Source: Alphaproteobacteria bacterium (GTDB taxonomy: Bacteria > Pseudomonadota > Alphaproteobacteria > Bin95). Taken from it: a stretch of 64,000 bases of DNA. This document shows positions 10,278 through 45,157 of this stretch, one piece after another. The stretch covers positions 5,860-69,859 of the forward strand of contig JAWLBX010000015.1 of assembly GCA_041687435.1 (NCBI GenBank). Direction: 5' to 3'. The notes below the pieces were generated by a model. It was not told where the DNA came from. It made no database searches and saw only the letters and a list, made by a program, of their open reading frames with translations. How positions within the stretch are numbered: position 1 is the first letter of the stretch; each line of letters begins with the position of its first letter. The position numbers and the translations under genes are program-made.

Positions 10278-10406
10278 ATGGGTCAGGAACCCGCCGCCAT
10301 TGCTTCGCCGCGTATAAATGTGTAGGAACCCCGCATATGGGGAACGTCAAGGTCTGGTATCAGACGTTAGCCCTTTCTCATTCCGTTTTTGGAGGTTTTA
10401 CCTTTC

Positions 10407-11561: not shown

Positions 11562-11590
11562 GCTGATTCCATCGCGAATTGCGATCCCAA

Positions 11591-11620
11591 GCCGCCGGCA
11601 GTACTGCCGGCGGCTTTTTT
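11591..11620 (+). terminator. rho-independent terminator after TAXI paralog 1
   Basis: GC hairpin gccgccggcagtactgccggcggc followed by TTTTTT. Confidence 0.6.
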
Positions 11621-11739
11621 CATAACAGTGTCAGTAACCTCATTTAATTTGACAAAACCGGCGGATGATCGTCCCATCTCCCCCAGCCAAAGCAGGGATC
11701 AACCTGCCTGGAGCGGAGACAGAGGAAGGAAAACGCCTG

Positions 11740-12894
11740 ATGTTACGAACAACCGCTACTGCAATCATCGCGGCATGCCTCAGCACGGCAGCATTCGCCG
11801 ACGATCCCAAATTACCCAAGTCGATGGTGTGGAGCGCCTACGACCTGGGCTCCTCCGGCTATGCCGAGGCGACCGGCATCGCCAACGCGCTGCGGAAAAA
11901 CCACGGCACTCGCATCCGCATTGTACCCGCCGGCACCTCCATCGGGCGTTTGCTGCCGATGGTGACAGGCAAGGTGACTTATGGGTTCCTTGCCAACGAA
12001 GTGTTCTTTGCGACCGAAGGCACCTTTGATTTCGCGACACAGCAATGGGGCCCGCAAAATCTCCGGATCGTTTCAGGCCGTGTGGCATCCGTTGGGTTTT
12101 CGGTTGCAGGCGACGTCGGCGTCAAAGAAGTCAAGGATCTGAAAGGCAAGCGCATTGGCTATGTCCGGGGCAACCCCTCGGTCAATGTGAAGAACGATGC
12201 CTATCTGGCCTTCGGCGGGCTGACCCGAGGCGACATCGAACCTGTCTGGTTCGGTTCCTACAGCGCCATGAAAACCGCGCTGCTCGCCAACCAGATCGAT
12301 GCCTTCGGCAGCGTGCCCACCGCAGCCAACGTTCGCGAGATCGAAGCCAGTCCGCGCGGGCTGGTCTGGCCGCAATTCCCACCGGACGACAAGGAGGCAT
12401 GGGAAAACGTCACCAAAGTCGTCAGCTTTGCAGCACCCTACCGCGAAACCATGGGTGCCGGCATCTCTGAGGAAAACCCGCATTGGCTGGTCGGTTACCG
12501 CTACCCCATGATCTCGGTCTATCAGGACGCCGCGTCTGCGGACGAGGTCTATAACCTGATCAAAGCGATCGACCTGTCCTATGAGGACTTCAAGAACACC
12601 ACGTCGAGTTCGTCCAACTGGGCGCTGGAGAAGGCGGGGCCGCCGCCCTATGACGCGCCGACCCATGAAGGCACCATCCGCTATCTGAAGGAAAAAGGCC
12701 TGTGGACCGACGAGCATCAGGCCTGGCAGGAAAACCGCCTGGACCGCCTCAACAAGGTGCTCGCCGCCTGGGACGAGGCTCAGGCCGAGTTCACCGACTG
12801 GCGGATTGCCGAGCAGGAAAAAGGCAACAAGATCGATGCTGACGAAGCCTGGCCGGAATACTGGGAAAAAGCCCGCATGGAAAAGCTGAACTAA
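11740..12894 (+). CDS. TAXI-family TRAP transporter solute-binding protein (paralog 2 of 4)
   Basis: Very close paralog of the preceding gene; long stretches are identical, including the C-terminal 'AQAEFTDWRIAEQEKGNK' and 'EAWPEYWEKARMEKLN'. Signal peptide present. AGGAAGGA RBS upstream. Confidence 0.85.
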   Translation: MLRTTATAIIAACLSTAAFADDPKLPKSMVWSAYDLGSSGYAEATGIANALRKNHGTRIRIVPAGTSIGRLLPMVTGKVTYGFLANEVFFATEGTFDFATQQWGPQNLRIVSGRVASVGFSVAGDVGVKEVKDLKGKRIGYVRGNPSVNVKNDAYLAFGGLTRGDIEPVWFGSYSAMKTALLANQIDAFGSVPTAANVREIEASPRGLVWPQFPPDDKEAWENVTKVVSFAAPYRETMGAGISEENPHWLVGYRYPMISVYQDAASADEVYNLIKAIDLSYEDFKNTTSSSSNWALEKAGPPPYDAPTHEGTIRYLKEKGLWTDEHQAWQENRLDRLNKVLAAWDEAQAEFTDWRIAEQEKGNKIDADEAWPEYWEKARMEKLN

Positions 12895-12920
12895 GCCAGA
12901 CCGGCAAAACGCCCCCCAAA

Positions 12921-12950
12921 GCCGCCGGCGAGATCGCCGGCGGCTTTTTG
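12921..12950 (+). terminator. rho-independent terminator after TAXI paralog 2
   Basis: Hairpin gccgccggcgagatcgccggcggc followed by TTTTT. Confidence 0.6.
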
Positions 12951-13068
12951 TGTTATCACGAGTATCTATCGTACATTTGTGTTTGACAAAATTTTTCCAG
13001 GGGCGTTGCTTTTTCGTCCCCCAAAGCCGGATCAACCGGTGGGATGAAACAAACGGGAAGGAAAACGC

Positions 13069-14223
13069 TTGATGATACGCACAATCGCAACAGCAGTTAT
13101 GGTCGCCGGGCTTGGCTCCGCAGCCCTGGCCGCGGAGCCTGCCATACCGAAAACGATGGTCTGGACCGCCTATGACCTGGGCTCGACCGGCTATGCCGAA
13201 GCCACCGGCATCAGCAATGCCTTCAAAAAGAATTACGGCACGCGCGTCCGAATCATCCCGGCAGGCACATCTATCGGCCGGATTTTGCCGCTGGTGACTG
13301 GCAAGGCCACTTACGGCTATCTGGCCAATGAGGCCTATTTCGCCGCCGAAGGCACCTATGACTTCGCCACCCAGCAGTGGGGGCCGCAGGATATCCGCAT
13401 CATCGCCGGGCGTGTCGCCTCGGTCGGGATGGCGGTTGCGGGCGATATCGGCGTCAAAACCATTGCCGACCTCAAGGGCAAGCGTATCGGCTTCGTCAAG
13501 GGCAACCCGTCCGTCAACGTCAAGAACGAGGCTTATTTGGCCTTTGGCGGCCTGACCCTCGACGATATCCAGCCTGTCTGGTTCGGCTCCTACAGCGCCC
13601 TAAAGACAGCCGTACTCGCCACTCAGCTCGATGCCTATGGCAGCGCCACCGGCTCCGCCAATAGGCGGGAAATTGAGGCGAGCCCGCGCGGGCTGGTCTG
13701 GCCGGAATTCCGGCCGGAGAATACGGAGGGCTGGAAGGCGATGCAGGATATCCTCAGCTTCACCGCCCCTTATAAGGAAACCGTTGGCGCCGCATTGTCG
13801 GAAGAAAACCCGTCATGGCTTGTGGGCTTCCGCTACCCGATGGTGACGGTCTATCCACGATCCGTTGGTGCTGACGAGGCCTACGCCTTCGCCAAGGCCA
13901 TGCACGAAAGCTATGATGACTACAAAAATACCAACGCCCTCTCCCCGAATTGGGAAATGAGCAAGGCTGGCCCGCCGCCCTACGACGCACCGGCCCATGA
14001 AGGCAGCATCCGCTACCTGAAGGAGCAAGGGTTCTGGACCGCGGAACACCAGGATTGGCAGGACAAGCGCCTCGACCGCCTGAATGCGGTGCTGGAAGCG
14101 TGGGACAACGCGCAGGCGGAATTCCATGATTGGCGCGAGGCCGAGAAGGCCAAGGGCAACACGATCGACGCCGAGGCGGCCTGGGCTGAACATTGGGCCA
14201 AATACCGCGCCAGGCACCTGTGA
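13069..14223 (+). CDS. TAXI-family TRAP transporter solute-binding protein (paralog 3 of 4)
   Basis: Same family motifs (MVWTAYDLGSTGYAEATGIS, RIIPAGTSIGR, GNPSVNVKNEAYLAFGGL) and a signal peptide. More diverged from copies 1 and 2. Confidence 0.85.
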   Translation: MMIRTIATAVMVAGLGSAALAAEPAIPKTMVWTAYDLGSTGYAEATGISNAFKKNYGTRVRIIPAGTSIGRILPLVTGKATYGYLANEAYFAAEGTYDFATQQWGPQDIRIIAGRVASVGMAVAGDIGVKTIADLKGKRIGFVKGNPSVNVKNEAYLAFGGLTLDDIQPVWFGSYSALKTAVLATQLDAYGSATGSANRREIEASPRGLVWPEFRPENTEGWKAMQDILSFTAPYKETVGAALSEENPSWLVGFRYPMVTVYPRSVGADEAYAFAKAMHESYDDYKNTNALSPNWEMSKAGPPPYDAPAHEGSIRYLKEQGFWTAEHQDWQDKRLDRLNAVLEAWDNAQAEFHDWREAEKAKGNTIDAEAAWAEHWAKYRARHL

Positions 14224-14393
14224 TCCCCGGCACGGACCCAACCCGATGTGAGAAACCACCGGTCCTTTAAGGGGCCGGTGGTGCATCTAATGGTATGCAA
14301 ATTTGAAATTGACAGACTGCCCGCAAACGGTTCGGATAGAGCCGCTTGCCGGTCGGTTTGATGGCAACAACAGACAGAATGGAGAAAACGTCT

Positions 14394-15542
14394 ATGATTC
14401 GAACCCTTTTGACGCTGGCCATGGCCGGCGCAACCTCGGCGGCGCTCGCGGCAGAGCCGCAGCTGCCGAAAACTATGGTCTGGACCGCTTACGACTTAGG
14501 TTCGTCCGGTTATGCCGAAGCCACCGGCATGGCCAATGCTTTCAAAAAACGGTTCGGAACACGCGTCCGCATCATTCCTGCCGGCACCTCTATCGGCCGC
14601 ATGCTGCCATTGGTGACGGGCAAGGCAAGCTATGGCTTCCTGGCCAACGAAGCGTATTTCGCAGCCGAAGGCACCTATGATTTCGCTGACGAGCAATGGG
14701 GGCCGCAGGATATCCGCATCGTTCTCGGCAAGCCGACCTCCAACGCCATTGCGGTCGCAGCCGACACCGGTGTCAAAACAGTCTATGATTTGAAGGGCTT
14801 GCGGCTTGGCTATGTGAAAGGCAACCCTTCCGTCAATGTCAAGCACGATGCCTATCTGGCATTCGCCGGGCTGACGCGCGACGATATCGAAGTGATCTGG
14901 TTTGGTTCTTACAGCGCACTGAAAACCGCAGTGCTGGCCAACCAGATCGACGGCTATTCAAGCGTGACCACGTCGGCCAACATGCGTGAGATTGAGGCGA
15001 GCCCGCGCGGCCTGTGGTATGCGCAGGTACCGCCGGAGGACAAGGAAGGCTGGAAGAAGCTGACGGACGTCGTCGACTTTGTGAAGCCGATGGTTGAAAC
15101 GCAGGGTGCTGCGCTCAGCAAGGAAAAGCCGGCAAACCTGACGCAGATGCGCTATCCGATGGTCACCGTCTATCCGAAGGATGTGGGTGCCGACGAAGCG
15201 TACAATTTTGTGATGGCTGCCGATATCGCGTTCGATGACTACAAGGATGCAACGGCGACTGGCGAGTTCTGGGCTGTCGATCAAGCAGGCCCGCCACCTT
15301 ACGACGCGCCGGCTCACGAAGGCACCATCCGCTACCTGAAGGAAAAAGGCATCTGGACGGACGAGCATCAAGCCTGGCAGGACAACCGCCTGGCACGGTT
15401 GAACAAATACCTCGACCAATGGGGCGAGGCGCAGGCCGAATTTCACGAATGGCGTGAGGCCGAAGGGGCGAAAGGCAACAAGATCGACCCGAAAGAGGCT
15501 TGGCCGGGATATTGGGAGAAATACCGGATGGGCCAGAAGTAA
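14394..15542 (+). CDS. TAXI-family TRAP transporter solute-binding protein (paralog 4 of 4)
   Basis: Same family motifs and a signal peptide. Start at the internal ATG with a GGAGAAAA RBS. Confidence 0.85.
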   Translation: MIRTLLTLAMAGATSAALAAEPQLPKTMVWTAYDLGSSGYAEATGMANAFKKRFGTRVRIIPAGTSIGRMLPLVTGKASYGFLANEAYFAAEGTYDFADEQWGPQDIRIVLGKPTSNAIAVAADTGVKTVYDLKGLRLGYVKGNPSVNVKHDAYLAFAGLTRDDIEVIWFGSYSALKTAVLANQIDGYSSVTTSANMREIEASPRGLWYAQVPPEDKEGWKKLTDVVDFVKPMVETQGAALSKEKPANLTQMRYPMVTVYPKDVGADEAYNFVMAADIAFDDYKDATATGEFWAVDQAGPPPYDAPAHEGTIRYLKEKGIWTDEHQAWQDNRLARLNKYLDQWGEAQAEFHEWREAEGAKGNKIDPKEAWPGYWEKYRMGQK

Positions 15543-26915: not shown

Positions 26916-27906
26916 GGCATGGCGATCCTTGCGGAAAGGAAAACGGATGCCCGCACTATAGCAAGCTTCCAACCGGGGGAAACCGGTTCAACCCGCCCAG
27001 CGCTCCGCATCGTTTTTCTCACCCGCAACCGGATTGAGCGGCACGCCTCGCAGTCATCCATCTCAATAAAACACTATGAAATTTTCAGTAATTATAATCA
27101 TTTTCAATATATTCGCAGAGGCTACACTGCCTATCGGCCGAACACCTCAGAATGTATGCATAAGGGAATTTTCTCACCATACATTAATCCCTCACGATCC
27201 GGCCCTTCCGTCACGTCAACTTCCCAGCATAACTGGCATCGGGATAGGCTGGCGACCCAGCGGAGCATAATTTGGATATGTGCAGGAGAGAAAATACGCA
27301 ATATCGAACGCGGAAAAATATGACATCTATTATTTTCCCACCTTCCATTAAATTATCGAAACCAGTGCCTAAATATTGATTGCACGCATAAATTGCTGCA
27401 CCGGTATTGAATTATTCAATCACGCTTAATAAGACTGAAAACCTGAAAAATCTGGATAATATCATGGAATGTTTTATCACAAACATATCGACATAATGAA
27501 TTACTACGACATAGTATCAGGATTTTTTCAGCGCCATTTCCGCATTATCACCTCCATATACTTAACAAGTAAATCCGCCTTTCCCAAAACAATATGCAAT
27601 ATTCAGCGATACATTTATACATATGTATGAATTTGCACCGTAAATTCTCCATGATCTTTTGGATTATAACCCGGATTGATATCAGTCGCGACTTTACATT
27701 CTTTGTGATTTGTCCACATTTATTTCTGCATACGATGGACAATAGGACACCCTGAGGGTTACCCGAAGATGGTTCTTGGTTTGTATGGTAACAAGCTGCT
27801 TCTATTACAGACCGTTTGGAACGACGCCCGCCAGGGTTGTAATGCAGTCCATCTATGGATGTACGATAAATATTCCAAGTTCTCAACCGAGTGAAAGGAC
27901 AAATCT

Positions 27907-28689
27907 ATGCTTGAGCGCACCCCACAGGCTTTTATCAACGCCTGCTTCTCTTTGATGTGGAACTCCGGTTATTCAGCTACTATCGATACTGATTTGCGTG
28001 GCTGGGTGGATTTTCTAACCAACGCGTATCCGGATTCGCCCGTCAATGCAGCCTTCAACCCCGAATTCCATCGCCTGGAACCCGACAATTCGTTCTGGCT
28101 ATCCATTCGCCGGCGCAGCGATGGCAAGGTGATCGCTTGTATTTGCGACCGGTTGATCGAGTCAGACGATTTCCTGGAAGACCAGCGGCTCATGAAAATC
28201 TGGTATGGCGATCCGGCGACAAGCGGGGCGGCCCCCATGCAGATCGCGCAGCCGCGCTCCGCCTATCCTGATGTGCGCGGTAAGATCGGCCATCACGGCG
28301 GTCTCTGGGTCGACCGTAGCGAGCGACATAATGGGTTGGCATGGCTGCTGTGCCGCATCATCCGCGCCATGTCTCTGCAGCGCTGGCCGGATGTCGACTG
28401 GCACTGCGGCACCTCACTCGAGGGCGTGGCGGTACGGGATCTGCCAACAAATACCTACGGCTATACCCGTGTCGACCTCTTGCTCGACGGTTGGTTCCAA
28501 CCCAGTCAGCAGCACCATAAAGTGTTCATGACCTCGATCAGCGCCAATGAAATGAGCCTGCAAATTGCAGAGGATCTGTCACTGATCGAAATGAACACCG
28601 ACAAGCAAATGCGTGACGTTGTTTTTGCCGCTAGAGAGCGGAAGAGCAACACGCCGGTACTCCCGGCTGTGCAAGCCCTTGCCGGTTAA
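27907..28689 (+). CDS. hypothetical protein
   Basis: 260-aa ORF immediately downstream of an ~880-bp AT-rich non-coding stretch. Lower GC than its surroundings and no recognisable domain. Confidence 0.4.
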   Translation: MLERTPQAFINACFSLMWNSGYSATIDTDLRGWVDFLTNAYPDSPVNAAFNPEFHRLEPDNSFWLSIRRRSDGKVIACICDRLIESDDFLEDQRLMKIWYGDPATSGAAPMQIAQPRSAYPDVRGKIGHHGGLWVDRSERHNGLAWLLCRIIRAMSLQRWPDVDWHCGTSLEGVAVRDLPTNTYGYTRVDLLLDGWFQPSQQHHKVFMTSISANEMSLQIAEDLSLIEMNTDKQMRDVVFAARERKSNTPVLPAVQALAG

Positions 28690-29082
28690 TTGGGCACTCA
28701 CTCCTTGGAATAAAGGAAACTTATTCGCCTTCGCTATGACGAGATCACGCTCCAAGGCCCGCTGAAGGGCTTTGGAGCTGATGTCGGAAACGCGTATGCC
28801 GGAATAGCCACCCATGCCCCGCAGCGCGAACACGTCATAGCTAAAATTGCCGGGGTTTTCATCGTGCACATCGATGACATGGAACCAGCCCAGAACGCCC
28901 AGACGGGTCAATTCCATCAGCCCAACATCATCGATATCCGGCAAGATCCCGTGACGCCGGGGCAAGGAAAACCAGAAACGGACAAGCCGCGCCAACGGCG
29001 CGTCCTTGCCTTCATCCAGTTCGGTCAATGCGCACACACGCCGTTCTACGACATCGCCGCTTCCGGCTTCGCGTTCGATCAT
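28579..29082 (-). CDS. hypothetical protein (possible PAS-like sensory fold)
   Basis: 167-aa ORF whose 3' end overlaps the preceding convergent ORF by ~110 nt, so one of the two calls may be wrong. Weak resemblance to PAS-like folds only. Confidence 0.35.
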   Translation of the reverse strand: MIEREAGSGDVVERRVCALTELDEGKDAPLARLVRFWFSLPRRHGILPDIDDVGLMELTRLGVLGWFHVIDVHDENPGNFSYDVFALRGMGGYSGIRVSDISSKALQRALERDLVIAKANKFPLFQGVSAQLTGKGLHSREYRRVALPLSSGKNNVTHLLVGVHFDQ

Positions 29083-29109
29083 TTCGCACCTCGCGGCAAC
29101 AGCACGAAT

Positions 29110-29703
29110 TTATTGAAGATGGTCATTGCTGTACAACCAGTCGCCAGAGACCGATTCTCCATGCACAAGGACATATTCGAACGCCCCTGCATCGCGCAGA
29201 GGGAAAATCAGTTGGTCTATGCTATTACTCGCGTTCAGGTCCCGTCGGGAAAACCGTCTAGCAGCAGCGCGACGATAACGGACCGCATCCAGATATTCCA
29301 GGGCGAAAAGTTGCAATAACCGCGCATCATTTACGTGCCGTATGATCGCCGAGCCGAACTGCTGCCCTGCTTCCATCACAACCGCATCACCCGCCCAAAT
29401 CACCGGCCAATCGTCCGGGTCGCGCCCCACCACGCCGACGATATACGCCTGCTCGTCCAGCATGTTCAGCGATTGCATCACATCAGATACCATCCCGGTG
29501 AACTGGTAATATCCTGCAATTCCACATAAATCGACCCAGCGCAGCAGGGCTCGCTGCAACTCCTCCGTCGCCGAGAGAATAGGAATGTCGCTCGCTTCCA
29601 CGATCGCCGCAAGCTCCTTCTCAGGACCGATTCCGCCTTGAATGATCTTTCCCGAAGTCGACACGTTAACGTCCTTGTGTTTATAGACAAAGGATTTGAT
29701 CAT
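29110..29703 (-). CDS. hypothetical protein
   Basis: 197-aa ORF with no confident domain. Loosely similar in pattern to the preceding ORF. Confidence 0.4.
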   Translation of the reverse strand: MIKSFVYKHKDVNVSTSGKIIQGGIGPEKELAAIVEASDIPILSATEELQRALLRWVDLCGIAGYYQFTGMVSDVMQSLNMLDEQAYIVGVVGRDPDDWPVIWAGDAVVMEAGQQFGSAIIRHVNDARLLQLFALEYLDAVRYRRAAARRFSRRDLNASNSIDQLIFPLRDAGAFEYVLVHGESVSGDWLYSNDHLQ

Positions 29704-29754
29704 ACTTTATTCAGACAACTCTAACGTCATGACCCGCGTGACGCAATATTTGCT

Positions 29755-30561
29755 TCAACGATCACAGCTTCCCTTATGGCCATATTTCATGGCCGAAACC
29801 GATAAAATCATGCCGCTTTCCAACCAGAGCCGCAACAATGCCGCAGCGTGCGATCCGGCAGTATCCGCGCCGACACAGCCAGCCAGCGCCTCGCAAATCG
29901 CAGCGAACGGCTCGCCAGCCGCCAGTTGAGCCAGCGCCGCGTCCTCCGCTTCATCCAGCACCCGATAGCGGACGGTGTACCCGTCGCGCCAGACTAAAGT
30001 ATGATGCAGCGGCACCGGCTCCAGCGGGCCGGGCCCATCGCCTGCCGCCAACGCCTGATAGATTGCGGCGGCCGGTGTCGCAGCCGGCACCCGGCGCACG
30101 GCCAGATGAAGGGCGAAGCGCAGTTCCGGCCATTCCTGCGGGTGAAACGCCGCCATCGCTTCCACGCCGCACGCTGGCGCATCCGGCGCATCGAATGCGG
30201 CAGCAATGGCCCAATCCAGCGCGGCGACATCCGCCACCGCCGGTGTTCCGCTATGGTGGCTGGCCAGAAACCCCGCAAAGCCGTCGCCATACCATCGCGC
30301 ATTCCGCACTGCCGATGGCGCAGACGCGATATAGGCACGCGCAGCAGCATCGAAACCGTCATCGCCCAGCAAGGCCCAGGTCTTGTCGAAATTGGCCTGC
30401 AATACCTCCACCAGGCGGGCCGCATAGGCGTGGCGGTAGATGCCGAACAGGGTGGCCGCGCTTTCCCGCGGGCCGGCGTTGATGCCATCCGGTACGGTGT
30501 CGTTCCCGGTATGCAAAATTGCTGCCTGAAATTCGGCCTGAAGCGTAGCCAGATCGGTCAC
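29755..30561 (-). CDS. DUF2063 protein (MNIO partner subunit, BufC/MbnC/TglI-like) of RiPP operon 2
   Basis: 268 aa with a DUF2063-like N-terminal region ('[10 protein letters not shown]…[18 protein letters not shown]'). Its start overlaps the stop of the upstream DUF692 gene by 4 nt. Confidence 0.75.
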
Positions 30562-31412
30562 GACTTCCTGGCCTCTGCTTCCACCCGCGCAGCGATGGCA
30601 CGGGCATGGTCCAGTTCCGCGAGCAAATCGGCAAGCGGCGGAATGTTGTCGTCCCGTTCGATCATGGTCGAGACCCGGCCGAAGTGGTGGCAGGCAGCTT
30701 CATAAAGCGCCCAGACATCGTCGATCACCGGCGCATCGTGGGTGTCGATAATATGCGTGCCGTTGTTGCTGTGACCGGCGAGATGGAACTGGACCACCCG
30801 GTCACGCGGGACGCCTTCGATAAAGGTCTGGGCATCGAAATCGTGATTGAAGCCGCTGACATAGATATTGTTAACGTCGAACAGCAACCAACAATCGGCT
30901 GCCTCCGCCACCGCGCTCACGAACTCCCACTCGCTCATCATCGAATGGGCATAGGTGACGTAAGAGGACACGTTCTCAATGGCGATCCGCCGCCCCAGAT
31001 AATCCTGCACCTGGCGGATGCGCCCGGCCACATGGGCGACGGCTTCCTCCGTGTACGGCAGCGGCAGCAGGTCGTGCAGATTCAGGCCATCGACACCGGT
31101 CCAGCAGAGATGGTCGCTAATCCACTGGGGCTGGACCCGGTCGGCCAGCGCCTTCAGGTCGCGCAGATAATCCGGGTCCAGCCGGTCTGTGCCGCCGACC
31201 GACAGCGATACGCCATGCATGACAATGGGATAGTCGGCCCGCACCCGGTCGAGAATCGCCAACGGCTGACCGCCGGGGATCATGTAATTCTCGGAGATGA
31301 TCTCGAACCAATCGACCGGCGGCTTTTGCTCCAACACGTCAGCATAGTGCTGGGTACGCAGCCCCAGGCCAAACCCCAGATAGGGCGGGCGCTCCGCTAT
31401 GGAATCGGTCAT
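30558..31412 (-). CDS. DUF692 multinuclear non-heme iron oxidase (MNIO; MbnB/TglH/BufB-like) of RiPP operon 2
   Basis: 284 aa from the internal ATG ([19 protein letters not shown]...). DUF692 TIM-barrel motifs: 'WFEIISENY', 'HGVSLSVGG', 'WISDHLCW', 'LPLPYTEE', 'IENVSSY', 'FDVNNIYVS', 'FHLAGH'. Confidence 0.85.
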
Positions 31413-31514
31413 CGGCGGCGCTTCCTCATCCGGCAGGTCCAGAATCACCAACGGCCGAGCACACGTAGGCGCCCGGCCGAAGCGGCACAAGTGCCGGAGA
31501 TGACAGGGGGCGGA

Positions 31515-31775
31515 TCAGCCGACCTTGCCACCCATCTTCGTGCACTCTTCCGCGGTCTTGGTGTTGATCCAGCCCTGACCCTTGCAGGCATTCTGGCCCT
31601 TGCAGGAGCTGGTGGCGGTCTGACAGGCGCTGTGGCCCTTGCAGGAGTTGGCCCCCATGCACTTCACGCCATCGGCGGCGAACACGGCGGTCGGCGCCAC
31701 CATCGCGCCGGTGGAAAACATTGCGGCAGCAGCAGCGGCGAGCACGACGCCAGAGGTCTTTTTCATCACGGACAT
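31515..31775 (-). CDS. RiPP precursor peptide, 6-Cys bufferin-2-like, with Sec signal peptide
   Basis: 86 aa: MSVMKKTSGVVLAAAAAAMFSTGAMVAPTAVFA | ADGVKCMGANSCKGHSACQTATSSCKGQNACKGQGWINTKTAEECTKMGGKVG. AGGAG RBS 7 nt upstream of the ATG. It lies directly upstream of a DUF692/DUF2063 pair. Confidence 0.7.
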   Translation of the reverse strand: MSVMKKTSGVVLAAAAAAMFSTGAMVAPTAVFAADGVKCMGANSCKGHSACQTATSSCKGQNACKGQGWINTKTAEECTKMGGKVG

Positions 31776-31946
31776 GCAATATCTCCTAGAGGTTGGTCGC
31801 GCCGGACAATCCGGCGCGGTTTCGAACACTCCCGCACAAAGCCCTTGGCCGGGCCAATGTGCTGGTCGCATTCTGCGCTTTTGGCCCGGCAGCGCCACCA
31901 AACAGACGCACACAGACATTCACTGTTGTGTGAGACTGCATCGGTG

Positions 31947-32456
31947 TCACCGCCCTGCCAGGGCCCGGCCGAGCCAATGCTCGACCGAGATGATGCCGGG
32001 CCCCCGCGCCATGATCAACAGCAACGCGGATGCCCAGAGCAGATGCACATCCCATGCACCCGGCAACACAAATATCTGGATAACAAGCGTCATCCCGAAC
32101 AGGCCGAGCGCGGCCAGGCGGGTGAACACGCCGATGAACAGAAACAGCGGCAGCCAGCTTTCCATATAGGTCGCCATCCATCCTGCAAATCCGGGCGACA
32201 GCAGCGGCACGCCATATTCCTCGAACAGATATGGCAGGCTGGGGCTGAGTTCCAGGCTGAACGTCAGGGCGCCCAACAGATTCCAATCCACGGCTTTGGT
32301 CTGGGCCGAAACCAGGAATACCATGCCTATACCGACCCGCGCCGCAAACAGGATCAGGCTCATCGGGATCATTTCCAGGACGGCAATCCCGGCATTCACG
32401 GCTTCCATGGCGCTGTTGCTGGCGGGCCGCGGGTTGTAGCCTACCCTGTCATTCAT
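31947..32456 (-). CDS. DoxX family membrane protein (BufD-like) of RiPP operon 1
   Basis: 169-aa 4-TM DoxX-like protein. Its start overlaps the stop of the upstream DUF2063 gene (ATGA). Confidence 0.7.
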   Translation of the reverse strand: MNDRVGYNPRPASNSAMEAVNAGIAVLEMIPMSLILFAARVGIGMVFLVSAQTKAVDWNLLGALTFSLELSPSLPYLFEEYGVPLLSPGFAGWMATYMESWLPLFLFIGVFTRLAALGLFGMTLVIQIFVLPGAWDVHLLWASALLLIMARGPGIISVEHWLGRALAGR

Positions 32457-33274
32457 CGCGTGGTTTCCTTATTTTTCAATTCCTGTGGAGCCTCCAGCGC
32501 AGCAAAAGTGCCCCGCTGCAAGTTGGTCGACAAAGCATCTGCAAGGTCAAAAGCCGGATCGGCGGCGGTGGCTGCAGCGGCCGCCCCGGCCATGTCCTGG
32601 CCCGCAGCAAAGGCAGCGAGCCAATGCCATTCCCCGGCCGGCACATGCCACATGCGAACATCGTATCCCTGCCGCAGCAGCAGGATCGCAGCGCCGCCCG
32701 CAGCCACCAGGTCGATCCGCTCGAGCGCACCGCTCTCCGGCGCCCGCGTGGCGTGCCAGAGCGCATCCACCGGCCAGTCGCTCGCAACGAGGCCGGCATC
32801 GGCGCGGGGGCGCAGCACCAGATCGGCCAGCGCATCGGCCGGCACTGCCCCCAGTGCGCCAGCCGTCAGAGCCGACTCATCGGCAGCATGAAAACTTCGG
32901 TGCATGGCCCATTCCAGCCGCGCAAGGTCGGGCAGATAAGGCAGACTGGCGGCGGACGGAAACGCGGCGAGGAAGTCGGCAAAACCGTCGCCATAGGCAT
33001 AGAGCACCGGATCGCATGGCGGCCCTTCCGCGATGAAGCCGTGCGCGGCAGCGCGGAAAAATTGGATGCCCACCATGGCCTCAACGGCGCTGTAAATCCC
33101 GGCGAGCGCGTCGGTCAAGGTGATCCGGATGTGATTGTGATGCACTTGCAGACGGCTGGCCGGGGCGATGCCATCTCCGAGGATATGGCCGACCGCCCCG
33201 CCCCCATCCGCAGGCGGCACCGGTGCGAACAGTTGCGCCCGCATGGCGTCCTGAAGCTCAAGCAGCGTCGGCAT
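32453..33274 (-). CDS. DUF2063 protein (MNIO partner subunit) of RiPP operon 1
   Basis: 273 aa with a DUF2063-like N-terminus ('LQDAMRAQLF…'). It overlaps the upstream DUF692 gene by 17 nt. Confidence 0.75.
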   Translation of the reverse strand: MPTLLELQDAMRAQLFAPVPPADGGGAVGHILGDGIAPASRLQVHHNHIRITLTDALAGIYSAVEAMVGIQFFRAAAHGFIAEGPPCDPVLYAYGDGFADFLAAFPSAASLPYLPDLARLEWAMHRSFHAADESALTAGALGAVPADALADLVLRPRADAGLVASDWPVDALWHATRAPESGALERIDLVAAGGAAILLLRQGYDVRMWHVPAGEWHWLAAFAAGQDMAGAAAAATAADPAFDLADALSTNLQRGTFAALEAPQELKNKETTR

Positions 33275-34145
33275 GGCGCAAAGCCTGGTCTAGATGGCAC
33301 TGGGCCGCGGCAGCCTCTGCCAGCAGCACCTCCAGCGGTGGCATGGCGGTATCCCACTCGATCAGGGTTGGCATCGGCCCCAACAGGGCGAGCGCACGCT
33401 CATATAAGGACCAAACGGCCGGCGCCACGCGGCTGCCGTGGTCGTCGATGCGGACGATCCGCTCTCCCACCCGATTCTCGGCATGGCCGGCCAGATGGAT
33501 TTCCGCCACCGGTGCGCTACTCATGGTTTCCAGATAGACCGCTGCATCCCAGCCATGATTCTCGCAACTGACGTAAACATTGTTGACGTCCAGCAGAATG
33601 CCGCAGCCGGTCTGCTCCGCCACAGCCCGCATGAAATCGGGTTCGGCGATGGTCGAATGTTTGAATTGCAGATAGGTGGACGCGTTTTCTACCAAAATCC
33701 GCCGCCCAAAGGCCTCCTGCGCCTGGTCGATATTGCGGCAGACAACCGCCACGCTCTCCTCTGTATAGGGCAGCGGCAGCAGGTCATTGAAATAGGTGCC
33801 GCGGTGCATGCTCCAGGAGAGATGCTCCGACACCAGCCCCGGCTCGATGCGCCGGGCGAACGTCACCAGGCGGGCGAGGTGGGCAGGGTCCAGCCCGTCG
33901 GCCGAGCCGAGCGACAGGCCAACGCCATGCATGGACACCGGGTAATGTGCCCGCGCAGCCTCCAGGTAGGCGAGCGGCGCACCACCGCCCAGATAGTTTT
34001 CCGGATGGATTTCCAGCCAGCCGACGGCAGGCAAGGTTTGCGTCACCGCCTCAAAATGGGCGGCGCGAAGGCCGATCCCCGCCGCGACCGGAATGGTGGC
34101 CGCGTCGGGGAGTGGGCCAGACGGATATTGAGGCATGGCCTGCAT
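33258..34145 (-). CDS. DUF692 multinuclear non-heme iron oxidase (MNIO) of RiPP operon 1
   Basis: The same DUF692 motifs as paralog 2 are present ('WLEIHPENY', 'HGVGLSLGS', 'VSEHLSW', 'LPLPYTEE', 'VENASTY', 'LDVNNVYVS', 'IHLAGH'). Start at an internal ATG (MQAMPQYPSG… or the MPQYPSG ATG 9 nt downstream). Confidence 0.85.
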   Translation of the reverse strand: MQAMPQYPSGPLPDAATIPVAAGIGLRAAHFEAVTQTLPAVGWLEIHPENYLGGGAPLAYLEAARAHYPVSMHGVGLSLGSADGLDPAHLARLVTFARRIEPGLVSEHLSWSMHRGTYFNDLLPLPYTEESVAVVCRNIDQAQEAFGRRILVENASTYLQFKHSTIAEPDFMRAVAEQTGCGILLDVNNVYVSCENHGWDAAVYLETMSSAPVAEIHLAGHAENRVGERIVRIDDHGSRVAPAVWSLYERALALLGPMPTLIEWDTAMPPLEVLLAEAAAAQCHLDQALRHADAA

Positions 34146-34179
34146 TGGACCGAACCTTAGACTTCCGCCCCGCGAACCA

Positions 34180-34434
34180 TCAGCCGGCGGTCTTCGAACC
34201 GCCGACCAACCGGTCGCACAGGCCGGCCGGAACCAAAACCCAGGCGTCTTTCTGGCCATCCACCTTGGATGTACCGGCACAGGAACTGTTTGCCGTGTTG
34301 CAGTCGTTGGCGCCAGCCTTCACCACACCATAGCATTTTTCCATCTTTTGATCGGCAGCCGCGGCCGGGCTGGCGGATACCGTCGCGCCGACGGCAGCGG
34401 CTACGGCGGTGGCGAGCAGGGCAGTCTTGTTCAT
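34180..34434 (-). CDS. RiPP precursor peptide, DUF2282-type (bufferin-1-like), with Sec signal peptide
   Basis: 84 aa: MNKTALLATAVAAAVGATVSASPAAA | ADQKMEKCYGVVKAGANDCNTANSSCAGTSKVDGQKDAWVLVPAGLCDRLVGGSKTAG. Four Cys, in the arrangement typical of DUF2282. It is the first gene of the minus-strand operon. Confidence 0.75.
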   Translation of the reverse strand: MNKTALLATAVAAAVGATVSASPAAAADQKMEKCYGVVKAGANDCNTANSSCAGTSKVDGQKDAWVLVPAGLCDRLVGGSKTAG

Positions 34435-35100
34435 CTGTCAGATCCTTTCGGTTTCGCCTTCCGGCGACAGGCTTGTCCATCGCCTGCTGTCCATACAAGT
34501 TGCATTTCCGACCGATACGCCAGTCACTACCCCGTGATCTCACAGCCATGTTATGTAAGGTTTCCAAACAGTTCACGGCATATCACAGGGCAGCGCAACT
34601 GGACTCACAATTGTGTTATTCGGCAGAATGCCATCATCGCCATGGAATCTGAACGCACCCGATCCTGCCCGGTTGCCAGATCGGACCGCGCGCCGCGCGC
34701 GGCCCTGACCGAATGCTATTACATGACACCATCGAAATTAAGAGCCGGCACAATTGTGGCAACAACTTGGCATGGCGCAAATGGCGAGCACCTGCGTAGC
34801 GCGCGCCCTTATAAATTCGCAGCATCCGGCACTACGATATTCACATGACAGTACGGCGGTATCCAGCCGTCATCGCCGGCTGCAGCGACGTCAATGTCGG
34901 CAAACTCCCTGGCCAGTGCGCCTTTTTGGTAAGAGCGAAACACTTAACGGGCTTTTCATTTGCAGTAATTTGGAGTAGACAAGAGTTATTCAATTCGCGT
35001 GCCTACCGCCGAGGGGTGGGAATCAGGCGGAGATCGAATTGTTTGGTGGGCCAGACCCGCCTGACGCGGAACCCATAGTGCTAGGAGGATGGGCGACCCC

Positions 35101-35916
35101 ATGCTGTCAAACTTGAAAACACCAATTCTTGTCGCCGTGTTAGGCTTAAGCCTCAGCGCATGCGCAAATCTTTACAACACCGCCAAGGAAGCCACGCCAA
35201 CCGGCGACAGCTATTCGCAGGCCCTGTTCAAGAACTACATGATGCTGGCGGACAGCGAGCGTCGTGAGGAAGATTGGACCGACGCCAACTTCTTCAGCGG
35301 CAAAGCTCTGGCGGCCGCCGACGGCATGCCAGCCGGCCCGCAGGAATTGGGCGAGCGCATGCTGGCCGAAAATTTCCTGGCGGAACTCGCCCCGGCGCGT
35401 GATTCGCTGGTCGCTGCCCTGAATGGCGGCGGCGCTGCCCGCAACCCGGAAGCCGCGGCAATGGCCGTTGCCGGTTTCGATTGCTGGATGCAGGAAGCCG
35501 AAGAGGGCCACCAGCCCGACGATATCGCCGCCTGCAAGAAGATGTTCATGGACGGCATGGACGGCATGGAGCCAGGCATGGCGATGGGGCCATGGACCGT
35601 ATACTTCGACTTCGACAAGGCCATGGTGAAATCCGACCAGCAGGCTGCGCTTGACGAAGCGGCCCAGGCTGCTGCTTCCATGTCCGGCGCGCCGGTGATC
35701 GTCAGCGGCCACACTGACACCAGCGGTCCGGCCGATTACAACCTGGGCCTGTCCGCGAGCCGTGCTCAGGCCGTTGTGGATGCGCTGAGCGCGCTCGGCA
35801 TCGACAGCAGCCGCGTGAACGTGAGCGCCACCGGTGAGGAAGACCTTGCGGTCCCGACTGCCGACGGTGTCCGCGAACCGCAGAACCGCCGTGTTGAAAT
35901 CCGCGTCGTGAATTAA
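35101..35916 (+). CDS. OmpA-family lipoprotein (C-terminal OmpA/peptidoglycan-binding domain)
   Basis: Lipobox LSLSAC. C-terminal OmpA domain motifs ('VYFDFDKAMV', 'GHTDTSGPADYNLGLSASRA', 'NRRVEIRV'). Confidence 0.8.
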   Translation: MLSNLKTPILVAVLGLSLSACANLYNTAKEATPTGDSYSQALFKNYMMLADSERREEDWTDANFFSGKALAAADGMPAGPQELGERMLAENFLAELAPARDSLVAALNGGGAARNPEAAAMAVAGFDCWMQEAEEGHQPDDIAACKKMFMDGMDGMEPGMAMGPWTVYFDFDKAMVKSDQQAALDEAAQAAASMSGAPVIVSGHTDTSGPADYNLGLSASRAQAVVDALSALGIDSSRVNVSATGEEDLAVPTADGVREPQNRRVEIRVVN

Positions 35917-35950
35917 ACCGCACGCGGCAGAGCCTCACGAGGCTCGGCAC

Positions 35951-35993
35951 AAAAAAGGGCGCGCCCTCCAGCTTTGGAGGGCGCGCTTTTTTT
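35951..35993. terminator. bidirectional rho-independent terminator
   Basis: A-tract, then hairpin gggcgcgccctcca-gcttt-ggagggcgcgc, then TTTTTTT. It sits between convergent genes. Confidence 0.65.
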
Positions 35994-36017
35994 GCGGCCG
36001 TGGCAGAGAAGTTTCGT

Positions 36018-41705: not shown

Positions 41706-42317
41706 CTACACCGAATAGTCAATCATCCTGACCTCCCCTTCCGCCAAATCCAGCACCGCACACGACAACTGCCGGCCGTTGCGTTGGTCGCGGGCGTCGC
41801 CGGCGGAGCCGGGGTTGACCACCAGCACATCGCCGACGCGCTCCGCCACCTGCTGGTGGGTGTGGCCGTACAGCACGATATCGGCATCCGCCTCGCCAAA
41901 GCGCTGCAAATCCTTGGAGCCGGGCAGGATATAGGCGCCCTGCGGCTCCCACGGGGTGGAGTGCACCATCAGGATGCGCTGGCCATGGCGTTCCAACTCC
42001 AGGCGATAGGGTTGCGCCTCCAGCCAGGCGACCAGTTCCTGGTCCACCCAGCTTGCCGCGCGCGCCCTGGCGCCCTGGGGGCCGAGAAAGCCCCATTCGT
42101 GATTGCCGAGGATGGTCGGGATGCCATTGTCGCGCAGCCAGCCGACGACCTCGTTCGAGAAGCGGTAGTCGTAAATCGTGTCACCGAGGCAGAGCAATTC
42201 GTCCACCGCGCCCATCAGTTCGACCGCCTTCAGCAACCCGGCCATGTTGCCGTGAATGTCGGAAACAATGCCGATTCTCACCCGGCCGTCTCCCGGGCGG
42301 CGATATCGCGGCGGCAA
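41706..42317 (-). CDS. metallophosphoesterase (YfcE-like calcineurin-fold phosphodiesterase)
   Basis: Metallophosphatase motifs 'GIVSDIHGN', 'LGDTIYD', 'GNHE', 'GHTH'. An in-frame GTG (VRIGIVSD) at 42281 would overlap the purD stop as GTGA and may be the real start. Confidence 0.75.
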   Translation of the reverse strand: MPPRYRRPGDGRVRIGIVSDIHGNMAGLLKAVELMGAVDELLCLGDTIYDYRFSNEVVGWLRDNGIPTILGNHEWGFLGPQGARARAASWVDQELVAWLEAQPYRLELERHGQRILMVHSTPWEPQGAYILPGSKDLQRFGEADADIVLYGHTHQQVAERVGDVLVVNPGSAGDARDQRNGRQLSCAVLDLAEGEVRMIDYSV

Positions 42318-43552
42318 AACCCTTCCGGCCAGTCGATCCGGTCCACGGCCTCATAGGCGCGAACTGCGGCTTCCTTGATAGTGTCGCCAAGGCCGGTAAT
42401 GCCCAACACCCGGCCGCCATTTGCCAGCACCCCGTCACCATCGGCCACAGTGCCCGCGTGAAATGGGATCACATCCAGCAGGCCTGCCAGACTGTCCAGC
42501 CCCCTGATCTCCGTCCCCTTGGCATAGGAGCCGGGATAGCCGTTGGCGGCCATGACAACGCATACCGCTGCCTCGTCGTACCAACGCAAATCGAACTGAT
42601 CCAGCACGCCGTCGCGGGCGGCAAACATGGCTGGAATCAGGTCCGATTGCAGGCGCGGCAGCAACACCTGCGCTTCCGGGTCGCCCAGGCGGCAATTGAA
42701 TTCGATCACCTTGGGCCCGTCTGCTGTCAGCATCAGGCCGGCATACAGCACGCCTTTGTAGGGCGCGCCTTCCACGGCCATGCCCTGCACCACCGGGTCG
42801 ATGATTTCGCGCATGACGCGCTCGCTCATCGCATCGTCCACCGCGGGCGCGGGCGAATAGGCGCCCATGCCGCCGGTATTGGGGCCGGTGTCGCCATCGC
42901 CGACGCGCTTGTGATCGCGGGCAGTGCCGAAGGGCAGCGCGGTCTTGCCATCCACCAGGGCGAAAAAGCTGGCTTCCTCGCCCTCCATGAACTCCTCTAC
43001 AACGATTTCCTGTCCGGCCGTGCCGAATTCGCCCTTGATCATGGCAAGGTCAATGGCGGCCAGCGCCTCGGCCCGTGTTTCCGGCAGCAGAACGCCTTTG
43101 CCGCCCGCCAGCCCATCCGCTTTTACCACGACCCGGCCCGGTTGCTGCGCCACGTAAGCCTTGGCCATGACCGGATCGCGGAAACGGCGATACCTGGCCG
43201 TCGGCACGCCGTATTTTGCGCACAGGTCTTTCATGAAGCCCTTGGACCCTTCAATCTGCGCCGCGGCGGCGCTGGGCCCAAATGCCTTGATGCCGGCCGC
43301 CTCCAGCCGGTCCACCAGACCCGCGCAGAGCGGCGCTTCCGGTCCGACTACGACCAGATCGACAGCATGCTCTTTCGCAAACGCCAGAATGCCGTCCAGG
43401 TCATCCGCCGCCAGGTCGGGCACACACGTTGCCTCTCGCGCAATGCCGGCATTGCCCGGGGCGCACCAGATCGCGTCGCACAGCGGCGATGCGGCAATGG
43501 CCCAACACAGGGCGTGCTCGCGGCCGCCGCTGCCGATAACGAGAAATTTCAC
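42278..43552 (-). CDS. purD: phosphoribosylamine--glycine ligase
   Basis: 424 aa with PurD ATP-grasp motifs throughout ('MKFLVIGSGGREHAL', 'GPNTGGMGAYSPAP', 'VLYAGLMLT..GPKVIEFNCRLGDPE'). Confidence 0.95.
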   Translation of the reverse strand: MKFLVIGSGGREHALCWAIAASPLCDAIWCAPGNAGIAREATCVPDLAADDLDGILAFAKEHAVDLVVVGPEAPLCAGLVDRLEAAGIKAFGPSAAAAQIEGSKGFMKDLCAKYGVPTARYRRFRDPVMAKAYVAQQPGRVVVKADGLAGGKGVLLPETRAEALAAIDLAMIKGEFGTAGQEIVVEEFMEGEEASFFALVDGKTALPFGTARDHKRVGDGDTGPNTGGMGAYSPAPAVDDAMSERVMREIIDPVVQGMAVEGAPYKGVLYAGLMLTADGPKVIEFNCRLGDPEAQVLLPRLQSDLIPAMFAARDGVLDQFDLRWYDEAAVCVVMAANGYPGSYAKGTEIRGLDSLAGLLDVIPFHAGTVADGDGVLANGGRVLGITGLGDTIKEAAVRAYEAVDRIDWPEGFCRRDIAARETAG

Positions 43553-43612
43553 GCCGAAACGCTCCGCTTAACATCTGTCACAATCGACGCCGATCTTGTA
43601 GCATCCGGCGCG

Positions 43613-45157
43613 ATGAGTACCAACCATGCACCACCGCACGCCGAACCGGGCCTTGACCTTGCGCCGCCGGACCCCGCGGCCACCAACCAGCCCGAATTCT
43701 CCGTCAGCGAACTGGCCCGCGCCATTCGCGGCTTGTTGGAGGGGGAATTCGGCCGCGTGCGCGTGCGGGGCGAGATCACCGGCTTCAAGCGCGCCGGCTC
43801 CGGACATCTGTATTTCCGGCTGAAGGATCAGGACGCAGTGCTGGATGCGGTCTGCTGGCGCGGCGCCGCCGGCCGGCTCAATGTGGCGCCACAGGATGGG
43901 CTGGAGGTCATCGCCACCGGCAAGATCACCGGCTACCCCGGCCGCTCCACCTATCAGATCGTGATAGAGCAGATGGAGATGGCCGGCGAAGGGGCCCTGC
44001 TCAAGCTGCTGGAGGACCGGCGCAAGGCGCTGGCGGCCGAAGGCCTGTTCGCGGCCGAGCGCAAACGCCCCCTGCCCTTTCTTCCGGCCGTGATCGGCGT
44101 TGTTACCTCGCCCACCGGCGCGGTGATTCGGGATATCCTGCACAGGCTGCGCGACCGTTTTCCCCGCCGCGTGCTGGTGTGGCCCGTGGCAGTCCAGGGG
44201 GACGCCGCGGCACCACAGGTCGCCGCCGCAATCCGCGGCTTCAATGCGTTAAAGCCCGGTGATCCGGCCCTGCCACGCCCGGACGTGCTGATCGTGGCGC
44301 GCGGCGGCGGCAGCCTGGAGGATCTCTGGGCCTTCAACGAGGAAATCGTCGTCCGCGCCGCTGCCGAATCGGAAATCCCCCTGATTTCGGCGGTTGGCCA
44401 TGAGACCGACACCACTTTGATCGACCATGCGGCCGACCGGCGCGCCCCAACGCCGACCGCCGCCGCCGAACTGGCCGTGCCGGTGGTCAGCGAATTGCTG
44501 ATGCGCATCGCCGACCTGGATCGCCGCCTGCTTGGTGGCGCGGTGCGCGGGCTGGAAGAGCGGCACTTGCGCCTGCAAGGCGCCGCCCGCGGCCTGCCGG
44601 CACCGGCCGACTTGGTGGAGCAGGCCGCCCAGCGCGTCGATGACCAGGCCGAGCGGCTGGCCCTCACCCTGCGCGGCTATCTCGTCAACGCGGCACAGAA
44701 TGTGCGGGCCAGCGCCGCCCGCCTGCGCCACCCGCGGGAAATTCTGGCGCTGCACGGCCAGTCACTCACGGCGCAAAGCCGGGCGCTGGACCGGGCGGCG
44801 GACCAGGCCTGGCGGGGGGCAGACCATGCCCTCGCCCGCGTCGATGCCGCCCGCCGTCTGCCTCTGGCGGCCGCCCGCGCTATTGACGACGCCGAACGGC
44901 GGCTGGAGCATACCGGCGCGCTCCTGCAATCCTATTCCTACGAGCGGGTGCTGGACCGGGGTTTCGTGCTGGTGCGCGGCCCGGATGGGCCGGTCACCGA
45001 CGCCGCCGATGCCACGCCAGGGCTGGCCGTCACCTTGCAATTCCGGGACAATCAGACCCGTGATGCCATCATTCAGGGCGAGGCCGAGCCCAAAACACCC
45101 GCCCGCAAGAAACACGCGGCCAAATCCCGCGATGGCCGGCAAGGCAGCCTGCTGTAG
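43613..45157 (+). CDS. xseA: exodeoxyribonuclease VII large subunit
   Basis: 514 aa from the internal ATG (MSTNHAPP…). N-terminal OB-fold region 'SVSELARAIRGLLE…VRVRGEITGFKRAGSGHLYFRLKD', the catalytic core 'VIGVVTSPTGAVIRD…GGGSLEDLWAFNEE…SAVGHETDTTL', and a long C-terminal coiled coil. The 5' 1.5 kb of the ORF-finder frame is antisense to purD and spurious. Confidence 0.9.
   Translation: MSTNHAPPHAEPGLDLAPPDPAATNQPEFSVSELARAIRGLLEGEFGRVRVRGEITGFKRAGSGHLYFRLKDQDAVLDAVCWRGAAGRLNVAPQDGLEVIATGKITGYPGRSTYQIVIEQMEMAGEGALLKLLEDRRKALAAEGLFAAERKRPLPFLPAVIGVVTSPTGAVIRDILHRLRDRFPRRVLVWPVAVQGDAAAPQVAAAIRGFNALKPGDPALPRPDVLIVARGGGSLEDLWAFNEEIVVRAAAESEIPLISAVGHETDTTLIDHAADRRAPTPTAAAELAVPVVSELLMRIADLDRRLLGGAVRGLEERHLRLQGAARGLPAPADLVEQAAQRVDDQAERLALTLRGYLVNAAQNVRASAARLRHPREILALHGQSLTAQSRALDRAADQAWRGADHALARVDAARRLPLAAARAIDDAERRLEHTGALLQSYSYERVLDRGFVLVRGPDGPVTDAADATPGLAVTLQFRDNQTRDAIIQGEAEPKTPARKKHAAKSRDGRQGSLL

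Follow-up and report, generated by a model that had tools for sequence, protein, structure and literature searches.

The 64-kb stretch of alphaproteobacterial contig JAWLBX010000015.1 analysed here (the window, in whose numbering all positions are given) carries two complete predicted bufferin (captophorin-class) biosynthetic gene clusters, buf1 and buf2, that directly adjoin each other. We consider it likely that these are two specialised clusters joined in one cassette, each with its own promoter and both under a common regulator encoded elsewhere. On the minus strand the order is bufA1-bufB1-bufC1-doxX-bufA2-bufB2-bufC2, with all seven open reading frames (ORFs) intact and with families called by the curated cut-offs of Pfam and NCBIfam. 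The first cluster consists of bufA1 (34180..34434), encoding an 84-aa precursor of the Buf1 type (DUF2282; PF10048, 82.8 bits against a cut-off of 22.4), bufB1 (33258..34145), encoding a 295-aa multinuclear non-heme iron oxidase (MNIO, DUF692) of the Buf1 type (MNIO_BufB NF050167, 369.6 bits against 310), bufC1 (32453..33274), encoding the 273-aa DUF2063 partner (PF09836, 64.7 bits), and bufD1/doxX (31947..32456), encoding a 169-aa DoxX membrane protein with hydrophobic segments (PF07681, 42.5 bits). The second comprises bufA2 (31515..31775), encoding an 86-aa precursor of the Buf2 type (BUF_6/12Cys; Cu_RiPP_BufA2 NF050166, 87.1 bits against 60), bufB2 (30558..31412), encoding a 284-aa MNIO of the Buf2 (Cys-Lys) type (MNIO_BufB NF050167, 386.2 bits against 310), and bufC2 (29755..30561), which has a GTG start and encodes a 268-aa DUF2063 partner (PF09836, 74.8 bits). 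The DUF2063 and DoxX matches also lie above the Pfam cut-offs, and the Pfam family MbnB_TglH_ChrH is matched at 341 bits by bufB1 and at 380 bits by bufB2; the best solved relative of BufB1 is 3BWW (DUF692). The doxX gene is the only one of its kind at the locus, none being found between bufA2 and bufC2. Overlaps of 17 nt (bufB1/bufC1) and 4 nt (bufC1/doxX, ATGA; bufB2/bufC2, GTGA) link the genes that follow the precursors, the start of bufB1 is backed by one NCBI protein of 295 aa that is 100% identical, and orthologue lengths agree for every one of the seven genes. The original prediction had placed seven minus-strand ORFs at these coordinates with these overlaps, had expected significant hidden Markov model matches to DUF692 and DUF2063 for the four enzyme genes and Cys counts of 4 and 6 for the precursors, and had read the locus as one buf1-type operon (DUF2282 plus DoxX) and one buf2-type operon (6-Cys), head-to-tail and with coupled enzyme genes; all of this is borne out. 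The individual genes are ordinary members of known families and bring no new enzymology.

It is very improbable that the locus belongs to another class of MNIO-dependent ribosomally synthesised and post-translationally modified peptide (RiPP), be it methanobactin, the Hvf/oxazolin type with EGKCG repeats, chryseobasin or aminopyruvatide. The DUF692 fold is common to all of these, a DUF2063 partner accompanies it in some, and weaker NCBIfam matches to HvfB, ApyH, MbnB and ChrH are indeed obtained; among the MNIO models, however, only MNIO_BufB scores above its cut-off, with HvfB at 228.9 and 289.7 bits (cut-off 360), HvfC at 22.9 and 17 bits (142), MbnB (TIGR04159) at 59.8 and 67.3 bits (325), ApyH at 73 and 88 bits (400) and ChrH at 26 and 48 bits (600), and the precursors match DUF2282 and BufA2. 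Both precursors lack EGKCG repeats and any MbnA-like peptide, and neither an MbnA nor an MbnC gene is present at the locus. Oxazolin/HvfABC, fontiphorin and gonophorin share with the window the pairing of MNIO and DUF2063 protein, thiooxazoles formed from Cys and copper binding (by analogy in the case of the window), often together with a DoxX-like gene (PMC11252979, PMC13097082), whereas the EGKCG-type captophorins differ from it in the Lys-Cys EGKCG repeats of their precursors and in their HvfB and HvfC models, which stay below cut-off here. Methanobactin MbnABC likewise employs a DUF692-family iron enzyme, whose work on the Cys residues of a ribosomally made peptide yields a copper chelator, but the product is an oxazolone/thioamide and a secreted chalkophore for copper acquisition, not a periplasmic buffer as in the case of bufferins.

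BufA1 has four Cys (residues 34, 45, 52 and 73) and BufA2 six (residues 39, 45, 51, 58, 64 and 78) with three C-K-G motifs, and all Cys of both precursors are conserved in four orthologues. Simple hydropathy gives both a Lys-containing N-terminus followed by an Ala-rich hydrophobic stretch of 15–25 residues, and the simple (-3,-1) rule puts the likely cleavage at small-x-small sites, between AAA and AD in BufA1 and between VFA and AD in BufA2. Short direct repeats in bufA2 (31575-31651; families D4 and D5) match repeated S-C-K-G-x-x-A-C core modules, which suggests that the 6-Cys core may have arisen by internal duplication. The reference system for both clusters is Caulobacter vibrioides, where buf1 (CCNA_03363-03366) has a DUF2282 precursor, MNIO, DUF2063 and DoxX in the order seen in the window, and buf2 (CCNA_02999-03001) has, again as in the window, a 6-Cys precursor, MNIO and DUF2063 with no DoxX (PMC11626156). 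The precursors of the two organisms agree in their Cys numbers, and the signal-peptide-like N-termini seen in the window would correspond to the Sec-type signal peptides of Caulobacter; the clusters themselves lie at separate loci in Caulobacter, whereas they are fused head-to-tail in the window. In Cupriavidus metallidurans and Legionella pneumophila the gig (gold-induced genes) operons have the four-gene buf1 architecture as well and count as buf1-type clusters. In the published mechanism Cys becomes 5-thiooxazole through the joint action of BufB and BufC, each Cys changing in mass by -4 Da; the Sec signal peptide serves export, modification proceeding without it and likewise without DoxX, and mature bufferins bind copper in the periplasm (PMC11626156). 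The mass change of -4 Da per Cys pair given in the original prediction is thus to be corrected: as published, each thiooxazole, formed from one modified Cys, accounts for -4 Da (PMC11626156). By analogy, each MNIO of the window would act in the cytoplasm with its own DUF2063 partner to oxidise Cys of its own precursor to 5-thiooxazoles, the modified precursors would leave via the Sec pathway with removal of the signal peptide by signal peptidase, and the two small mature proteins would chelate excess copper in the periplasm.

BufB1 and BufB2 are 47% identical, BufA1 and BufA2 are 35% identical across 68 residues, and BufC1 and BufC2 are barely alignable. The C-terminal motif reads E252-R-D-D in BufB2 and E263-W-D-T in BufB1; the Asp following the conserved catalytic Asp has been described as the Cys-Lys specificity determinant of MNIOs (PMC13097082), and mapping by motif position places an Asp at this site in BufB2 (ERDD) and not in BufB1 (EWDT). 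A BufA2-type gene lies just upstream in 73 of the best 80 BufB2-related loci among the matches listed, taken from species-representative genomes, while DUF2282 genes adjoin BufB1 relatives. Judged from these sequences, the two enzyme pairs diverged long ago into specialised paralogues and do not stem from a recent duplication, since BufB1 and BufB2 have retained only 47% identity. Ratios of nonsynonymous to synonymous substitution rates (dN/dS), computed for each gene against four relatives at dS values of 0.5–2.8, range from 0.06 to 0.37 across the seven genes (bufA1 0.06–0.21, bufA2 0.10–0.16, bufC1 0.25–0.37, bufC2 0.13–0.27), and all seven genes are under purifying selection. These figures bear on the alternative that one of the clusters is a redundant, decaying copy and that a single bufferin is made. 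The two clusters of C. vibrioides are both copper-responsive and their roles overlap (PMC11626156), which would allow for such redundancy; the seven intact ORFs, the low dN/dS in both clusters, the retention of every Cys in both precursors and the divergence of the enzymes, which excludes a recent duplicate, make it highly unlikely.

With two clusters side by side the question of their control arises. In Caulobacter SigF/NrsF, encoded beside buf1, controls both clusters via GTAACC-N16-CGAA promoters (PMC3511200); the window, in contrast, has no sigma/anti-sigma gene nearby and no SigF-type motif, and instead a palindrome precedes both precursor genes. Pfam returned no sigma, anti-sigma, NrsF or helix-turn-helix family in a search of approximately 50 of the window's larger ORFs, in keeping with the earlier observation that no extracytoplasmic function (ECF) sigma/anti-sigma or other regulator gene lies nearby, and the gene tables of the orthologous loci L081, L082, L083 and L095 hold no sigma, NrsF or helix-turn-helix gene either. 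The original prediction had called this lack unusual, and here published counts speak otherwise: among 13,976 MNIO loci Sigma70_r2 is found in 23%, NrsF in 12% and DUF2282 in 39%, and sigma and NrsF genes accompany a minority of Buf1 clusters and no Buf2 clusters. With adjacency being the minority state, the lack of a neighbouring regulator gene is therefore normal, and bufferin clusters are not defined by SigF/NrsF control. In Legionella pneumophila subsp. fraseri as many as seven MNIO genes occur, and ECF sigma genes are lacking (PMC12452194). Searching the window for the SigF motif with up to two mismatches, and the upstream regions of the clade with the relaxed pattern GTAAC-N16-18-CG(A/T)A, gave no SigF-type motif upstream of either precursor gene in the window and five orthologous loci, and no hit was conserved in position. 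Among the 73 distant buf2 loci 17 have the motif, and a nearly perfect copy is present in L087, a relative of 69% identity that has buf1 alone in a different context. Consensus matches to sigma-70 promoters and terminators were no more frequent than in shuffled sequence, and none near the precursor genes was of use.

When aligned, the two upstream regions each display sharply conserved blocks that have one element in common, TCAC-N6-GTGA (more broadly T(C/A)AC-N6-GTGA). Perfect copies of TCAC-N6-GTGA number exactly two in the 64-kb window against 0.45 expected, one upstream of each precursor gene. The bufA1 upstream region contains three operator-like sites: a distal one at 34605..34618 (TAACACAATTGTGA, one mismatch to TCAC-N6-GTGA, centre at -177.5 from the ATG), a first proximal one about 65 bp closer to the gene at 34540..34553 (TAACATGGCTGTGA, within an invariant CATAACAT block), and a second proximal one at 34524..34537 (the perfect palindrome TCACGGGGTAGTGA, centre at -96.5 from the ATG). 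All six orthologous upstream regions have the proximal pair, always 16 bp apart, and the distal site occupies the same position in L081 (one mismatch) and in L082 and L095 (both perfect). In the doxX-bufA2 spacer a single perfect palindrome is located at 31920..31933 (TCACACAACAGTGA, centre at -151.5 from the bufA2 ATG), and this is conserved in L081, L082, L083 (one mismatch), L090, L092 and L095. L089 (3314-3346) and L090 (about 2349-2381) have two adjacent palindromes upstream of bufA2, TCACACTTGTGTGG and TCACACAAGTGTGA, where the window has one. The orthologues keep the half-sites TCAC and GTGA without change, whereas the 6-nt spacers differ and the surrounding sequence drifts, and because of this the element would be a protein-binding site and not an RNA helix. 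Outside the clade, in distant Alphaproteobacteria, the palindrome is found 90–200 nt upstream of stand-alone bufA2 in seven of the 73 distant loci against 0.43 expected, in four of the seven 4–6 nt before a SigF-type -35 element, and the solo buf1 of L087 has, a short way downstream of a SigF-like promoter, two copies with one mismatch each at a distance of 16 bp. A single dimeric DNA-binding protein, with its gene elsewhere, thus probably regulates both operons together and would act through three palindromes before bufA1 and one before bufA2, with no involvement of adjacent SigF/NrsF genes. The neighbourhoods of the seven distant palindrome-bearing buf2 loci share no transcription-factor gene, and a metagenome scan with the strict double-operator pattern returned three more orthologous buf1 promoters only and no further regulon members. 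A distinct arrangement is seen in Bradyrhizobium altum (L034, 6398-9842), where a DoxX-like gene is followed by the palindrome, a 596-aa ORF, two tandem bufA2 genes and bufB2C2; L018, L023, L028, L045 and L053 are similar, and L034, L018, L028 and L053 have a separate SigF-type motif upstream of the first bufA2.

The palindromes might instead not be operators at all and owe their conservation to an unrecognised promoter of which they form part, or be due to chance. In favour of this, only eight bases are specified, the overall count in the distant loci (21 in about 1.3 Mb) is close to what chance would give, and the spacing to the putative promoter elements varies in the Bradyrhizobium loci. 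We nonetheless deem it unlikely: of the whole 64 kb, it is the upstream regions of the two precursor genes that contain both perfect copies, invariant half-sites around variable 6-nt spacers are the pattern expected of a protein-binding site, the enrichment upstream of distant bufA2 genes is one of position, and a 4-bp stem is too short for an RNA structure.

The same element bears on transcript structure. The original prediction had suggested a single transcript of about 4.7 kb, and a number of features could accommodate one obligatory seven-gene operon transcribed from a single promoter upstream of bufA1, with the 171-nt doxX-bufA2 spacer as an intercistronic linker: all genes lie on the same strand, no intrinsic terminator was found after doxX, and a conserved hairpin before the bufA2 ribosome-binding site could serve as an RNA processing or stabilising element. 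This spacer, however, holds a strictly conserved palindrome of the type found upstream of bufA1, and such palindromes also precede stand-alone buf2 operons, in four cases 4–6 nt before a SigF-type promoter, a placement expected of a promoter-associated operator and not of a linker; we therefore regard the single operon as improbable. The 4.7-kb transcript is thereby set aside as the best reading, while read-through from buf1 into buf2 is possible, no terminator standing in its way. Because a palindrome of the bufA1 type also precedes stand-alone buf2 operons, bufA2 most likely keeps its own regulated promoter, and because the palindrome precedes both precursor genes, two co-regulated promoters are likelier than a single obligatory transcript.

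The leader hairpin of bufA2 lies on the minus strand at 31798..31818 (CGCGCCGGA-TTG-TCCGGCGCG; 9 bp), 12 nt before the AGGAG ribosome-binding site. Across seven orthologues 92% of its cells are paired, with compensatory changes in four of the nine pairs, and its covariation score exceeds those of all 500 shuffles, slid controls pairing at 33–47%. A second hairpin, GC-rich, terminator-like and also on the minus strand, is located at 31451..31480 in the 102-nt spacer between bufA2 and bufB2 and is followed by a T-run. Its 12-bp stem is kept in six orthologues with three compensatory pairs and is followed by TTT(T), the T-run being clearer in the relatives than in the window. RiPP clusters usually rely on a terminator-like hairpin after the precursor gene to produce precursor in excess of enzyme, and the hairpin after bufA2 is probably an attenuator that would lower bufB2C2 expression relative to the precursor. 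The 34-nt bufA1-bufB1 spacer shows no hairpin by eye, and Rfam returned no RNA family in 27000-36000.

Contigs in which BufB1 is 72–83% identical to that of the window, among them the Alphaproteobacteria metagenome-assembled genome (MAG) GCA_020638555.1 and TARA ocean assemblies, have the same order bufA1B1C1-doxX-bufA2B2C2. Exact-sequence searches with the BufC1 and BufB1 of the window itself matched no recorded contig. The seven genes are accompanied by the same flanks in L081, L082, L083-86, L095 and L098 and are seen alone in L089/L090 and L092; the flanks in the longer contigs are, on one side, genes for OmpA, phosphoenolpyruvate (PEP) mutase, a flavin mononucleotide (FMN) oxidoreductase and a glutathione S-transferase (GST) and, on the other, three ORFs with no Pfam match, a coenzyme A (CoA)-transferase gene and a short-chain dehydrogenase/reductase (SDR) gene. 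In L093, which has the flanks of the clade, OmpA is directly followed by the no-Pfam ORFs with no buf genes between them, and blastn detected no similarity to the buf region and hence no buf remnants. As L093 has the same flanks without the buf genes, members of this small clade of uncultured marine Alphaproteobacteria either have the 4.7-kb block as a whole or lack it as a whole. Signs of a mobile element around the cassette, in the form of flanking repeats or a nearby tRNA, were not found. A gene-free gap of 650 bp (34435-35088) separates bufA1 from a divergent OmpA-family gene (35089-35916) in the window; at this position relatives have a creatininase gene and/or a gene whose product, of about 486 aa, has a hydrophobic N-terminus resembling a signal peptide, and a tblastn search of the whole window gave no remnants of the two.

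There are thousands of bufferin clusters, the literature already notes loci that have two MNIO genes, and the tandem is a joining of two members of known families for which similar juxtapositions exist elsewhere. Both bufferin types are adjacent in three of the best 80 BufB2-related loci (L044, L058 and L069; a rough figure). These tandems, from Gammaproteobacteria MAGs (L058 from OZ244909.1), resemble that of the window in having both types adjacent on one strand, an MNIO and DUF2063 protein of its own for each type and DoxX at the end of buf1; unlike in the window, buf2 comes first, and their BufB1 is only 43–45% identical to that of the window. Because of the reversed order and this low identity they are probably independent juxtapositions. 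The upstream regions examined in two of them, L044 and L058, have neither the palindrome nor a SigF-type motif. A buf1 cluster directly followed by buf2 is not described for gig-bearing genomes in the text consulted, and no description of a buf1-then-buf2 fusion was found in the literature searched. What is new here is the pairing of buf1 and buf2 together with a palindrome common to both; as a lead, only this conserved palindrome has a degree of novelty.

In weighing the picture of two specialised clusters in one cassette, with own promoters and a putative common regulator, several points count against it. The palindrome has only eight specified bases, two of the three bufA1 sites carry one mismatch, and promoter -35 and -10 elements are not assignable by eye from the alignments, in which the doxX stop codon accounts for some of the conservation seen upstream of bufA2. 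The lack of a terminator between doxX and bufA2 means that a long transcript may well coexist with a bufA2 promoter, the signal peptides of both precursors were judged by simple rules only, the thiooxazole and copper-binding steps are transferred by analogy from C. vibrioides, and the clade sample is small at about eight independent contigs. Taking these into account, a wider proposal is put forward only tentatively, as one we would not bet on: the palindrome could be the operator of an unrecognised, possibly copper-responsive bufferin regulator that is spread across Alphaproteobacteria, acts elsewhere beside SigF-type promoters and has become the main control in this clade after loss of the SigF motif, with the 4.7-kb block as a co-regulated double cassette gained or lost as a unit. 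As a defence of bacteria against copper, bufferins are very widespread but were recognised only recently, and their regulation is understood mainly from Caulobacter. At this locus the two bufferin types are linked and conserved and apparently have a cis-element in common, which makes it a compact natural system; the palindrome is a concrete handle toward a second regulator of bufferin expression, and the probably independent buf2-then-buf1 tandems in Gammaproteobacteria hint at an advantage of keeping both types together.

Directly downstream of bufC2, in a stretch of lower GC, are the three no-Pfam ORFs at 29110-29703 (minus strand), 28579-29082 (minus strand) and 27907-28689 (plus strand), which have no Pfam match even at E=10 and no NCBIfam match. 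They are clade-restricted with synteny kept, the first two being translationally coupled in relatives; the family of orf167 comprises only 21 database clusters, and its AlphaFold model (predicted local distance difference test, pLDDT, 86.5) gives weak PAS/Cache-like fold matches only. We considered whether these ORFs belong to the system or are the missing regulator; they persist in L093 without buf genes, and we rejected them as obligatory parts of the system. Next to them, between the CoA-transferase gene and the no-Pfam ORFs, lies an AT-rich intergenic region of about 930 bp (26973-27906); the surrounding 2-kb bin has a GC content of 0.54 against about 0.64 elsewhere, and a ATTTATACATATGTATGAAT palindrome is found at 27613-27632. 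Further away, a 1034-aa ORF (42053-45157) matches the exonuclease VII large subunit only over residues 549-1001, its N-terminal half having no Pfam match, and is probably over-extended or a fusion. Finally, four tandem ORFs of about 390–410 aa at 10389-15542 are apparent paralogues, the first matching NMT1-like periplasmic binding proteins, and a near-identical 26-nt motif occurs once per ORF, at 10608, 11941, 13273 and 14592.

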